From Candidatus Hodarchaeaceae archaeon (lineage in GTDB: Archaea; Hadarchaeota; Hadarchaeia; Hadarchaeales; Hadarchaeaceae): a DNA stretch of 24,000 bases. The notes under the pieces were generated by a model. That model saw only the letters and a program-made list of their open reading frames with translations, was not told the DNA's origin and did not search any database. The stretch lies in the NCBI GenBank assembly GCA_030018135.1, contig JASEGJ010000010.1:13283-37282 (forward strand). Reading direction: 5' to 3'. Of this stretch, positions 3,291 through 7,653 are shown in pieces. Position 1 is the first letter of the stretch. Every line of letters starts with the position of its first letter. The position numbers and the translations under genes were made by a program.

Positions 3291-3425
3291 AGCCCCGTGG
3301 GGTAGACCAGTAAAGCTGGGCCTAATGGTCAGGGTTCAAAGCCCCCATAAAAGCCTTCGGGCCTTTGGAGCCCGTGACCCCGGTTCGAAATCGGCCAGCC
3401 GACGAAGTTCCGGGCGGGGCTACCA
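3291..3425 (+). tRNA. tRNA-Gln (anticodon UUG) with three non-canonical introns and genomically encoded CCA
   Basis: Acceptor AGCCCCG/CGGGGCT (A1-U72), then A and CCA. Anticodon arm CGGGC-CTTTGGA-GCCCG at 3358-3374, anticodon TTG at 3365-3367. T stem CCCGG 3379-3383 / CCGGG 3410-3414. A 73-nt cloverleaf needs removal of about 3306-3325, 3332-3351 and 3390-3408. Confidence 0.8.
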
Positions 3426-3426
3426 T

Positions 3427-3621
3427 TTTTGTTAAGTAGTCTTGAGAAGTCGGATCGCCGAAGGACGTGGGGCAATTATCGCTTTTTAGCCGCTTTATTG
3501 CCTCCTTAAGGGCGTTTTCCGCGACCCGTGAAATGTTCAGGCCCGCATCCTTCGCTTCCTTCAAGATAGCAGGATCAAGGGTGATTGCGGTTATCTGGCG
3601 CTTTCGGTTTGGTCCCTTCAT
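3427..3621 (-). CDS. Candidate int(N): N-terminal ~65-aa fragment of a partitioned SSV-type integrase (alternatively a separate small ribbon-helix-helix-like protein)
   Basis: ORF 3322..3621 starts MKGPNRKRQITAITLDPAILKEAKDAGLNISRVAENALKEAIKRLK. It then reads through the tRNA 3' half as MVAPPGTSSAGRFRTGVTGSKG. That is the same phase as GRIRTGVAGSKG at the N terminus of the recombinase ORF at 5050..5940. Confidence 0.45.
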
Positions 3622-3915
3622 GTATATACACTCCTATGCACTCTCAGCCTCTTCAAGCACTTCTTTCAATCTCCTAGATATAATCCCCTTGATGTTTTCC
3701 ATACTCTGCTCCTCCGCGAGGCGGCAAAGTTGTTCTATTCGCTCAGGAGACAACTTGCGGCCCCGCCCTCGCCTGCTCGATGCTGCACACTATTAAAAAC
3801 CACTTTGCCAACCGAGACAGTGCATCGCCCATATTAAACCACGCGACATAAAAACTCGGCGCGATCTTTTTTTAGATTTTTAAGGAAATAAAAAAAGAGA
3901 GTTTGGGGCCCTAGG

Positions 3916-4392
3916 ATGGACTGGAGAGAATTTCTTCCTGTACATGAGTATAAAGCGTGGGTCGAAGACGCTCGAGATAAATTGGAGGAAGCGAAGAAGG
4001 ATCTAGATGACTTTCCTTTTAGTGCCTTTCAACGGGCCCATGAATCTGCCGAATTTTTATTAAAAGCCGTTTTGGTCCGTGCGGGCAAATTCGGTAGAAA
4101 AAATCGAATCCACCAATTACCACCGCTTCTGGATAAGATAGATCGCGAAAAATGCCTTCCACCCGGAGCGATTACTAAAGCACGAGAAATTGTGCCAGAA
4201 CTCGAGATTATAAATGTGGGCGGCCCGCGACCAGCCCCTACGCATGTCGACTCCATTACATACACAGCCGAGGTTGAATATCCGAAGGCAGGAATGTCTT
4301 CTACCGATCGAATATCAAAGGAAATGGCTGAGGAAAAAATATGTTTGTCACAACAACTGCTTGAATTATTACTTCCTTATTTGGACTGTTAA
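3916..4392 (+). CDS. HEPN-domain protein
   Basis: 158-aa ORF, helical. HEPN-like segment AHESAEFLLKAVL followed by an R-x4-H motif (GRKNRIHQL). AT-rich TATA-like sequence upstream (3870-3895). Confidence 0.7.
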   Translation: MDWREFLPVHEYKAWVEDARDKLEEAKKDLDDFPFSAFQRAHESAEFLLKAVLVRAGKFGRKNRIHQLPPLLDKIDREKCLPPGAITKAREIVPELEIINVGGPRPAPTHVDSITYTAEVEYPKAGMSSTDRISKEMAEEKICLSQQLLELLLPYLDC

Positions 4393-4402
4393 ATTGGCGC
4401 TG

Positions 4403-4687
4403 TTAACTTTTCTTTTTCCTCAACAATCTTCTTATTTGCTCTTCCTGTCTATTGTACCATTTATCAAAGAGCAGATACCCAAAGGGTAAATGAATGCCAA
4501 AGATTCCGAGTCCTCAGAAAATTAGGGGCCAGTGAAACCATATCTTTTCCGGCACAACTACGAGGTTGTAAACTGGAAAAATAACTGCGTTGAAAACCAA
4601 GTATATCACGAGATGGCAAAGGAAACCTTTTTTTGCTTCTCTCTTTTCCACAACTCTTCTCGCTTCTCTGTAATCCTTCACACTCAT
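4403..4687 (-). pseudogene. 2TM-domain small membrane protein interrupted by an in-frame TGA (4514-4516)
   Basis: My translation: MSVKDYREARRVVEKREAKKGFLCHLVIYLVFNAVIFPVYNLVVVPEKIWFHWPLIF-TGA-GLGIFGIHLPFGYLLFDKWYNRQEEQIRRLLRKKKS*. The TGA sits where this family usually has Trp (W-G-x-G-L). Below the ORF-track size cutoff. Confidence 0.5.
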
Positions 4688-4973
4688 TTTTTCACATCCA
4701 TCGGTGTGATATTGCTTCCTTAAAAGGTTGATGGAGGTATTAAGTTAACACCTATGTGAATCGCGAGGTTTTTTATTCATTTCGGTTTTCTCACTATCAC
4801 CTCATCGGTTTTGGGCATGATTGCATACACCTATCCGCGGTCTTTCGCCGCAATATAGTTTTTCGCTCGGGGCCCTCAATCAAACCCACGCGGTCAAAGC
4901 CGCAATTGAATTCCCGAGGTGCCCCTGCCCCTTTTGTTTCTCCCTTTGATGGTTGTGGGAGCATGATATTCAC

Positions 4974-5003
4974 CCGCCTCTCATCGAATAGTTTGAGAGG
5001 CGG
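4974..5003. repeat. Inverted repeat (9-bp stem, 12-nt loop) downstream of the integrase stop
   Basis: CCGCCTCTC (4974-4982) / GAGAGGCGG (4995-5003). Confidence 0.4.
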
Positions 5004-5049
5004 ATCCCTTAAAGCCGAGCGATTCATCATCCTATCAGCACCGTTAAAT

Positions 5050-5940
5050 TTACGAGAGAACTTTTAACCCCGCGCCATCGTATATCCTCTTTAACCGTTC
5101 GGGAGAGAAGTCCGTGTAATGCCTCGCCAGCACGCTCCTCGGAACCCGCCCACAGAAGGCATCGACGTATCTGTCTGCAACGCCCAACTCGCCCATCTCG
5201 GAGCAGAACCAGTCGCGCAAAATCTGGGGCGTGATCTTAACGCCCGATGCCTCGCTCGCCCGCTTGAACCACCTATCAATTCGACTACTCCGCCACGGAA
5301 AGAGCCTTTGGTCGGCGCTCACGTCCCGCCCGTTGAGGTATTCTCTCAGCGCTTGCTCCGCTTCTCGGTTGAAAAATGACGCCCATCTTTTCTTTGTTAT
5401 TGTGCTTGTTACGTTTGGCAGCACCATTCTCTTGTCAAGGTCGATGTCGCCTATCTTGAGCGATGCGACCTCATCTCGCCTAAGCCCCGATGTGGCGAGC
5501 ATCAGGAACACCGCACGTTCAAATGGCCTTTTGAGCGCTTCGTAAAATCGCTTCAACTCTTCCTTGGTCGGCACCCTTTTCGGCTTGAACTCTTGGCGCG
5601 GTAATTTGAACGTCGCCACTATTTCGCCTCTGCCCAAGAAGTCGCGGAAAAATCTTCTAAATGCTTTAAGAATGTTGGCGCGAGTCGAGGCGCTTGAATC
5701 CTTAAAGCCCGCGAGATAATCTCTAATAACATCGGTCGAAACTTCAGCGCCGTTTAACCATCTCAAGAATCGTTTAATTTCACGACAATGATCTTGGGCG
5801 GTGGCCTCGGACAGCGATAGGTCGATCGTGCAAAATTTCTTGAACTTCTCCAAAACATCAGGATCGAACGTTATGCCTTTGGAGCCCGCGACGCCGGTTC
5901 GAATCCGGCCGGGGCTACTAAATTTTAGGAAAAGTCGCAT
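5050..5940 (-). CDS. Tyrosine recombinase/integrase, C-terminal catalytic part (int(C) of an SSV-type partitioned integrase)
   Basis: 296-aa ORF. N-terminal residues SSPGRIRTGVAGSKG are the translated tRNA 3' half. SAM-like core-binding region present. Catalytic-type residues ATSGLRRDE (Arg), ILRDW (the xxR Arg) and C-terminal VLARHYTD (Tyr). The ATG at 5940 lies outside the repeat, so it is probably fortuitous. Confidence 0.85.
   Translation of the reverse strand: MRLFLKFSSPGRIRTGVAGSKGITFDPDVLEKFKKFCTIDLSLSEATAQDHCREIKRFLRWLNGAEVSTDVIRDYLAGFKDSSASTRANILKAFRRFFRDFLGRGEIVATFKLPRQEFKPKRVPTKEELKRFYEALKRPFERAVFLMLATSGLRRDEVASLKIGDIDLDKRMVLPNVTSTITKKRWASFFNREAEQALREYLNGRDVSADQRLFPWRSSRIDRWFKRASEASGVKITPQILRDWFCSEMGELGVADRYVDAFCGRVPRSVLARHYTDFSPERLKRIYDGAGLKVLS
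5875..5917 (+). other. Intron-less partial copy of the tRNA-Gln(UUG) 3' half (right att repeat)
   Basis: GCCTTTGGAGCCCGCGACGCCGGTTCGAATCCGGCCGGGGCTA: anticodon loop to discriminator, canonical T arm GCCGG-TTCGAAT-CCGGC, no 5' half, followed by CTA instead of CCA. Confidence 0.8.
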
Positions 5941-7522: not shown

Positions 7523-7653
7523 AGCCCCGTGGGGTAGACCAGTAAAGCTGGGCCCAATGGTCAATCCTGGCGGACGCTTCACAAGGCCGCAATCTGGATC
7601 CGTCGACCCCGGTTCGAAATCGCCCCGCGACGAAGTTCCGGGCGGGGCTACCA
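7523..7653 (+). tRNA. tRNA-Gln (anticodon CUG) with three non-canonical introns and encoded CCA
   Basis: Same acceptor and D region as the 3291 gene. Anticodon stem GCGGA (7571-7575 region) / TCCGT, anticodon CTG at 7594-7596. T stem CCCGG/CCGGG. A 73-nt cloverleaf needs removal of about 7538-7557, 7576-7592 and 7619-7636. Confidence 0.8.

Follow-up and report, generated by a model that had tools for sequence, protein, structure and literature searches.

How do non-canonical introns come to sit at unusual places in archaeal tRNA genes? The earlier proposal that mobile elements act as their vectors rested on a single locus. Here we describe a second locus that raises the same question, in a 24,000-nt stretch of DNA from a Candidatus Hodarchaeaceae archaeon of the phylum Hadarchaeota (contig JASEGJ010000010.1, positions 13,283 to 37,282; hereafter the window). 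In it, a small integrated element (3375-5888, 2,514 bp from core to core) separates two different versions of the 3' part of one tRNA-Gln(UUG) gene, one with a 19-nt intron in the T loop and one without. Which of the two came with the element? The reading frame of the element's integrase, the start of the tRNA homology at the anticodon loop, and element-free loci of the sister genus that match the intron-less copy lead us to favour, short of proof, the reading that the intron-bearing T arm was borne by the element, which would probably have swapped the intron-free 3' part of the UUG gene for its own copy. If this is true, the locus offers a rare, concrete example of tRNA intron transfer into a gene by a mobile element, and a cleaner one than the first, since the two att copies can be studied together with an intact split integrase and relatives free of the element. 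The 19 nt would double as a spliceable RNA intron and as linker codons of an integrase, and the integrase frame would serve as a record of which arm was the element's.

Two versions of one tRNA 3' part

The working tRNA-Gln(UUG) gene lies on the plus strand at 3291-3425 and constitutes attL. By direct reading it holds three inserts: a D-loop intron of about 20 nt (3306-3325), placed by alignment to intron-less orthologues; a second intron of about 20 nt on the 3' side of the D loop (3332-3351), placed by alignment to orthologues with and without the insert (L004, L021, L016); and the 19-nt T-loop intron ATCGGCCAGCCGACGAAGT (3390-3408), between T-loop positions 59 and 60. Borders of the first two are good to about 1 nt on either side; they were set by these alignments, a brute-force splice search being too permissive for the purpose. 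Throughout, G000 is the genome of the window, g1, g3, g4, g7, g8, g11 and g12 are genus labels, and G, L and P numbers denote relative genomes, loci and proteins. Once the three inserts are removed, ARAGORN reads a canonical tRNA-Gln(ttg) with anticodon UUG and an A1-U72 pair. The unspliced window yielded no tRNA with ARAGORN or with Rfam in either gathering or E-value mode; standard finders miss the gene because three inserts interrupt it. A search of the 1.1-Mb assembly with the 14-bp att core and the acceptor motif found this single UUG gene. Its host paralog, tRNA-Gln(CUG), lies further downstream on the same strand (7523-7653), with introns in its D, anticodon and T loops.

The window contains exactly two occurrences of the 29-nt pattern GCCTTTGGAGCCCGNGACNCCGGTTCGAA, one at 3361-3389 and one at 5875-5903, both on the plus strand, where 100 shuffles of the window give an expectation of none. 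Both occurrences begin with the same 14-bp core GCCTTTGGAGCCCG (attL core, 3361-3374; attR core, 5875-5888), which covers tRNA positions 30-43 in the anticodon loop and stem and is the region in which we infer the crossover. The left copy (3361-3425) reads GCCTTTGGAGCCCG TGAC CCCGG TTCGAA[ATCGGCCAGCCGACGAAGT]T CCGGG CGGGGCT A CCA. The right copy (5875-5920), running from anticodon stem position 30 to the 3' end, reads GCCTTTGGAGCCCG CGAC GCCGG TTCGAAT CCGGC CGGGGCT A CTA, its intron-less arm being ...CGACGCCGGTTCGAATCCGGCCGGGGCTACCATTTTTG... The copies differ in the 19-nt insert, present on the left only; in variable-loop position 44, T3375 against C5889; in pair 49-65, C3379/G3414 on the left and G5893/C5909 on the right, Watson-Crick in both; and in the 3' end, CCA against CTA. 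The original prediction had described the copies as intron-bearing and intron-less 3' parts of tRNA-Gln with the first three of these differences, and direct reading of the sequence agrees, the 3' ends, to which it had alluded only in passing, adding a fourth. It had further held that both copies are coherent T arms of tRNA-Gln(UUG) with different ancestries. This view stands as well: pair 49-65 is Watson-Crick in each, and when the left 5' part is combined with the right 3' part, ARAGORN again recognizes a tRNA-Gln(ttg).

The T-loop insert fits a bulge-helix-bulge by direct reading (CCCGG-UUCG-[AAA]-UCGG-CCAG-CCGA-CGAA-[GUU]-CCGGG), with the T stem as outer helix, a central helix UUCG/CGAA, 3-nt bulges GUU and AAA, and an inner helix UCGG/CCGA. 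Cuts in the two bulges are predicted to leave a normal T loop, UUCGAAU. In the CUG paralog the inner helix is kept through a compensatory change (UCGC/GCGA). Of these elements, the minimum-energy fold of the intron-bearing T arm shows the T stem and the inner hairpin alone, and fold energies of this arm are no different from those of shuffles; the z-score is uninformative and we do not use it as evidence.

A split integrase with the tRNA inside its reading frame

Two open reading frames (ORFs) on the minus strand flank the element. The first, int(N) (3621-3361), encodes a CcdA-like ribbon-helix-helix (RHH) domain (Pfam CcdA at residues 9-47) and a linker, and then continues in antisense across the 3' part of the working tRNA gene; it counts 87 codons up to the core, and the called ORF continues to 3322. 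The second, int(C) (5888-5050, within ORF 5940-5050), starts within the right att copy; its product is a complete tyrosine recombinase of the XerC/D-like kind, with a SAM-like core-binding domain (PF13495/PF02899) at residues 30-104 and PF00589 together with PF16795 at residues 122-278. The PF16795 (Phage_integr_3) match, over residues 122-277, scores 36.9 bits, the cut-off being 27. By eye, the catalytic motif (signature R...KxxR...Y) reads QILR here, against K or Q in homologues (PKVLR, PQVLR), and the tyrosine of RHY is present. The protein database holds 1059 homologues of int(C) at E <= 1e-20.

Joining the two halves at the 14-bp core gives 1086 nt that are open throughout, a frame of 361 codons in which the intron bases, read on the minus strand, form about six linker codons (GTSSAG) between the RHH and core-binding domains. 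Joining them at the acceptor block CGGGGCTAC gives 1067 nt, in which the RHH frame meets a stop after 81 codons; a TTG in a third frame would be the recombinase's only possible start. The claim that int(N) and int(C) join in frame only through a crossover 5' of the intron is thus upheld.

Homologues that are not split match the longer product. The joined 361-aa protein aligns with P0050, also 361 aa, from residues 11-361 to residues 11-361 at 48% identity, and it is colinear with P0115 (381 aa) too. In Pfam, P0050 combines CcdA, SAM-like and integrase domains within one ORF, and P0115 carries the same RHH N-domain fused to an integrase. Two further unsplit homologues, P0078 and P0008, have another helical N-domain and the same tRNA-encoded linker; the linker region between the RHH and core-binding domains varies in length and sequence among homologues. 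Among metagenomic relatives of the RHH domain, 46 of 80 loci have a complete antisense tRNA 8-113 nt after it, covering eleven amino-acid specificities, and 10 of the 12 relatives that we read through keep the frame open into the tRNA. As a positive control, int(N) and int(C) of an element integrated in tRNA-Ser(GGA) (G045:C34) likewise join in frame across attL and attR. Because the joined protein is colinear with unsplit homologues, the tRNA-encoded linker is shared, RHH relatives read into antisense tRNAs and the control joins in frame, we assign the predicted RHH domain to the integrase, as its int(N). With attP inside the integrase ORF, the organisation deduced from these frames is that of a self-splitting ("suicidal", SSV-type, type I) integrase. 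We also considered the RHH gene as a free-standing antitoxin of the HEPN gene that the element carries, and rejected this, its homologues being either fused to integrases or abutting antisense tRNAs.

Which arm came with the element

Where did the crossover lie? Pair 49-65 restricts the choice, as the original prediction had argued: an exchange between positions 49 and 65 is rejected, since both parental T stems would then have been mismatched (C49/C65 and G49/G65). The crossover would lie either 5' of position 49, in which case the intron is element-borne, or in the acceptor block, in which case it is native. The start of the tRNA homology points to the first. Beside int(C) this homology begins 2 nt before the anticodon loop, and in G045 and G047 the displaced tRNA-Ser fragment begins at the same distance. 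A circular contig (L143; ENA k141_175582, 6114 nt with a 141-nt terminal repeat) encodes the unsplit 382-aa integrase P0078, whose ORF contains an antisense, intron-less tRNA-Gln(UUG) stretch that starts 1 nt ahead of the anticodon loop and extends to the CCA; by these features L143 is a free element of the same family, aiming at the same tRNA. A homology that starts at the anticodon loop is expected if strand exchange uses this loop as the overlap, as in the SSV1 integrase, which is reported to cut at the anticodon-loop borders (Serre 2002, as cited in PMC8371274). Mismatches between attL and attR of the tRNA-Ser element (G045, G047) were of no help in placing crossovers, the site being polymorphic.

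The comparison with relatives that lack the element, which the original prediction had proposed as a check, points the same way. The order AOR gene, tRNA-Gln(UUG), downstream genes and tRNA-Gln(CUG) is conserved in genera g4, g12 and g7, and the element is missing from these syntenic loci. The closest genus is g4 (aEF-2 88-89% identical, against <=83% for all others; AOR 88%). In both g4 genomes (G013 and G003) the syntenic UUG 3' half has no T-loop intron and is identical to C44-C74 of the right copy at 30/30 nt, and the flank downstream of the right copy is homologous to the g4 flank. The same 30 nt are identical in G043 and G061 as well; among UUG 3' halves of the family, the version of the right copy (g4, G043, G061) is the commonest. 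The original prediction had left two scenarios standing, and the one in which the intron-bearing arm is element-derived is favoured by these element-free relatives and by the integrase anatomy of the family; we rate it as likely.

In this scenario, a circular element of ~2.5 kb would encode a 361-aa self-splitting integrase in which a linker connects an N-terminal CcdA-like RHH domain to a XerC/D-like recombinase. This linker would be the antisense 3' part of tRNA-Gln(UUG), from position 30 to the CCA and including the 19-nt T-loop intron, so that the intron would be read as integrase protein. The attP would recombine with the anticodon stem-loop of the host tRNA-Gln(UUG) gene, the 14-bp core being common to both and the 7-nt anticodon loop the likely overlap. 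Integration would split int into the int(N) and int(C) halves at the element's ends. It would also push the native, intron-free 3' part (C44, T stem GCCGG/CCGGC, CTA end) 2.5 kb downstream to 5889-5920, and would join the host 5' part, which ends at 3374, to the 3' part supplied by the element (3375-3425; T44, T stem CCCGG/CCGGG, T-loop intron, acceptor 3' strand and CCA, a P' arm deduced from the frame and the relatives). The only UUG gene found would thereby depend on a delivered T arm (T44, C49-G65) with an intron in it. By analogy, the host should splice this intron, because its CUG paralog has a homologous one at the same place. The competing scenarios would leave different traces. With the intron on the element, the circle junction would read ...GTTATGCCTTTGGAGCCCG followed directly by TGACCCCGGTTCGAAATCGG..., and the empty site ...TTCGGGCCTTTGGAGCCCG followed directly by CGACGCCGGTTCGAATCC...CTACTAAATTTT; if the intron is native, the circle would contain the intron-less arm and then CCATTTTTG, and the empty site the intron-bearing arm and then CTAAATTTT.

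The best surviving rival, which we regard as unlikely, is that the intron-bearing arm is native, either inherited or converted from a CUG-type gene, that the attP was the intron-less right arm, and that the crossover lay in the 9-bp acceptor block (3415-3423 / 5910-5918). The T stem of the host CUG paralog is the same, and a homologous intron sits at the corresponding place in it; the original prediction took this intron, together with the shared CCA end, as signs of a native arm. The first carries little weight: the left T-loop intron matches that of the paralog at 16/19 positions, no closer than it matches those of other genera (17/20 in g7 genes, 18/19 in G002). The second is void, because the native gene would have ended in ...GCTACTA under both scenarios, with the CCA supplied by the element. 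Nor does the left T arm look as if it had evolved in concert with the host paralog. Between the two host Gln genes, the 5' parts, D-loop intron included (3291-3332 and 7523-7564), are identical at 41/42 positions, suggesting that intron-bearing Gln 5' halves evolve in concert, and in G054 the T-arm stretches of the UUG and CUG genes, introns included, are identical over 44 nt; the left arm is unlike these because its intron is only 16/19 identical to that of its own paralog. Within-genome identity of the Gln 5' parts is equally high in the g4 genomes.

Several observations do weigh against an element-borne arm. In G002 (genus g3), an arm that is 52/54 identical to the left one, its intron 18/19, lies at the start of contig C28 (L245, G002:C28:1-1551) at the syntenic UUG position, followed by homologous downstream genes and the CUG gene, with no element adjoining; the contig breaks right after the att core, the 5' half was not found, and the anticodon is taken from synteny and the start 'CCGCGAC' only. 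G054 has a native-looking UUG gene with a T-loop intron. Such an intron-bearing arm could be native in the lineage of the window too, and the right copy, as the commonest UUG 3' half, could then be an attP derived from such hosts. The sister genus provides soft parsimony, because UUG intron content changes fast even within a genus, and the host 5' half itself carries an intron that the sister genus does not have. The TTG-started third frame could still yield an integrase, of 304 aa, if the intron is native. Neither the protein database nor the contig collections searched have a copy of the integrase above 82% identity, the protein database has no 361-aa version of it, the exact att junction pattern occurs in none of the viral contigs searched, and a metagenome scan with int(N) returned relatives of <=69% identity only, sited on other tRNAs. 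Finally, the source of the window is itself a metagenome-assembled genome.

Part of this evidence has two sides. The CUG introns of G000 and G002 are ~73% alike (44/60), and the 18/19 match of the UUG introns against this background (binomial p ~0.02) suggests recent horizontal sharing of the UUG arm. The G002 arm cuts both ways: it shows that such arms occur natively, and it might plausibly mark a former host type of the element or another recipient. Homologues of the T-loop intron are found at the same place in the CUG genes of six genera (g1, g3, g4, g7, g8 and g11), a distribution which indicates that this intron is old in CUG genes. Within genus g7, tRNA-Gln(UUG) genes have from 0 to 4 introns (e.g. 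L148-L159), two of the four lying in the T arm, at 53/54 and 59/60.

Against a native intron, the RHH frame would stop after 81 codons, whereas the unsplit relatives are RHH-att-Int fusions colinear with the 361-aa ORF; the RHH gene and the integrase would then not be one ORF, or the element would already have been defective and moved in trans. An acceptor-block crossover also requires, on its 5' side, 45 bp of tRNA homology that nothing would maintain, while in other members of the family the homology starts at the anticodon loop, and by direct reading the block is devoid of dyad symmetry. A change of the T arm and a gain of the intron would both be required after the split from the sister genus.

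Far less probable is an integration between identical intron-less arms, followed by gene conversion of the working 3' part from an intron-bearing tRNA-Gln gene. Conversion between Gln genes is evident elsewhere, in the identical T arms of G054 and the near-identical 5' parts of G000. Here, however, the original integrase would have been both out of frame and 19 nt shorter, the genome has a single possible donor, which differs at 3/19 intron positions, and the open in-frame join of 361 codons would be a coincidence (1 chance in 3, plus a stop-free frame). An assembly artefact, in which the contig merges two strains and the two copies stem from different genomes, is hardly credible: the source is metagenome-assembled and the G002 contig break right after the att core marks a site hard for assemblers, but the element has complementary int(N) and int(C) halves at its ends, which can be joined in frame, synteny with relatives extends over both flanks, and the sequence bears no sign of a join.

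Known systems, intron traffic and the element's contents

Intron gain through a mobile element was proposed for tRNA-Thr(GGU) of Caldiarchaeum subterraneum, by recombination of an intron-bearing attP with an intron-less attB (Sugahara et al. 2012, PLoS One 7:e32504, PMC3293823), a model restated in the review of Badel et al. 2021 (PMC8371274). The mechanism would be the same here, with a tRNA-like attP of a mobile element carrying the intron. The intron-less native attB arm of that model fits our locus, provided that the right copy is the native arm, and an intron in the element's attP arm is supported indirectly, by the frame and by the start of the tRNA homology. The two cases differ in several respects. 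The earlier one was judged to be of the pNOB8 type, with a recombinase gene that does not overlap the tRNA, whereas here the integrase splits itself; its intron lies at 24/25 in the 5' part of the tRNA, and ours at 59/60 in the T loop, inside the integrase frame; it was deduced from fosmid heterogeneity, while here the reading frame indicates the element's arm; and its host is Caldiarchaeum subterraneum instead of a member of the Hadarchaeota. The principle has therefore been proposed once already (PMC3293823), and what sets our locus apart is the intron inside a self-splitting integrase ORF, the T-loop site, the host phylum and the evidence from the frame.

Suicidal integrases carry the Phage_integr_3 (PF16795) catalytic domain (PMC8371274). 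Like SSV1, pTN3 and pT26-2 (suicidal, type I), the element of the window has an int ORF that contains the attP, borders that carry int(N) and int(C), the tRNA 3' part from the anticodon loop as target, and PF16795. It differs from the SSV type in three ways. First, there is no detectable similarity to fusellovirus genomes: the integrase has no tblastn match at E <= 1e-5 in the phage and fusellovirus records, and no relative in the viral contigs. Second, int(C) is here a complete two-domain XerC/D-like protein, and int(N) a separate CcdA-like RHH domain (a helical module in relatives). Third, the integrase family extends beyond the classical hyperthermophile hosts, to metagenome-assembled genomes of Hadarchaeota, Bathyarchaeia, Nitrososphaeria and Korarchaeota, the labels including Methanodesulfokora and Methanocellaceae. 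The best plasmid matches of int(C) are pNOB8-type (type II) integrases, those of pNOB8, pAH1 and other Sulfolobales conjugative plasmids, which are distant at 26-30% identity over 78-94% of int(C). A pNOB8-type gene is intact and lies beside the reconstituted tRNA on the same strand; here the gene is split and antisense, with its catalytic part beside the displaced fragment.

In the Thermoproteales, a 'transposition' of tRNA introns was reportedly described by Fujishima and colleagues in 2010. The likeness lies in related non-canonical introns found in different tRNA genes; here, a physical vehicle for them would be visible. We put forward as a tentative idea, less probable than its opposite, that small self-splitting elements move the entire T arm, its T-loop intron included, from one tRNA-Gln gene to another and across genera of Hadarchaeota. 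The intron would travel as integrase coding sequence and be dropped into intron-free genes at integration, and it could persist if the element were later lost by recombination 3' of the intron. If true, this would explain both the patchy occurrence of UUG introns, from 0 to 4 within one genus, and the element-free 52/54 arm in g3.

The locus also bears on the idea that introns protect att sites in tRNA genes (Randau and Soll 2008, as cited in PMC3293823). The T-loop intron lies inside the att homology, yet 3' of the proposed crossover, so it would not have blocked integration and would not block the next one either. The sequence equivalent to the core is interrupted only by the anticodon-loop intron of the CUG paralog. 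This insert (7568-7590) sits at the att-core equivalent, and the invaded UUG gene has no insert there.

The element is compositionally foreign, with a G+C content of 47% against 58% in both flanks. It carries a cargo gene on the plus strand (3916-4392) for a HEPN-domain protein (Pfam HEPN, E = 1.5e-7). A 123-bp non-coding stretch at 4809-4931 has an 86%-identical copy on the opposite strand of the same contig, beyond the window (G000:C1:667-788).

Further traces of the integrase family were seen outside the element. Fragments of the integrase C terminus (residues ~240-296), 74-96% identical, are scattered in genomes of the family (e.g. G000:C34:2-151 and G000:C29:540-629), some of them in tandem beside tRNA fragments (G058:C97, G045:C34); repeated integration and deletion probably left them behind. 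A degenerate second relative of the RHH domain, 39% identical and with no adjoining tRNA, is found at G000:C11:139603-139740. Widespread in metagenomes, too, are CcdA-like int(N) modules whose frame runs into an antisense tRNA (L062-L141, L199), and the RHH-type module is common across uncultured archaea.

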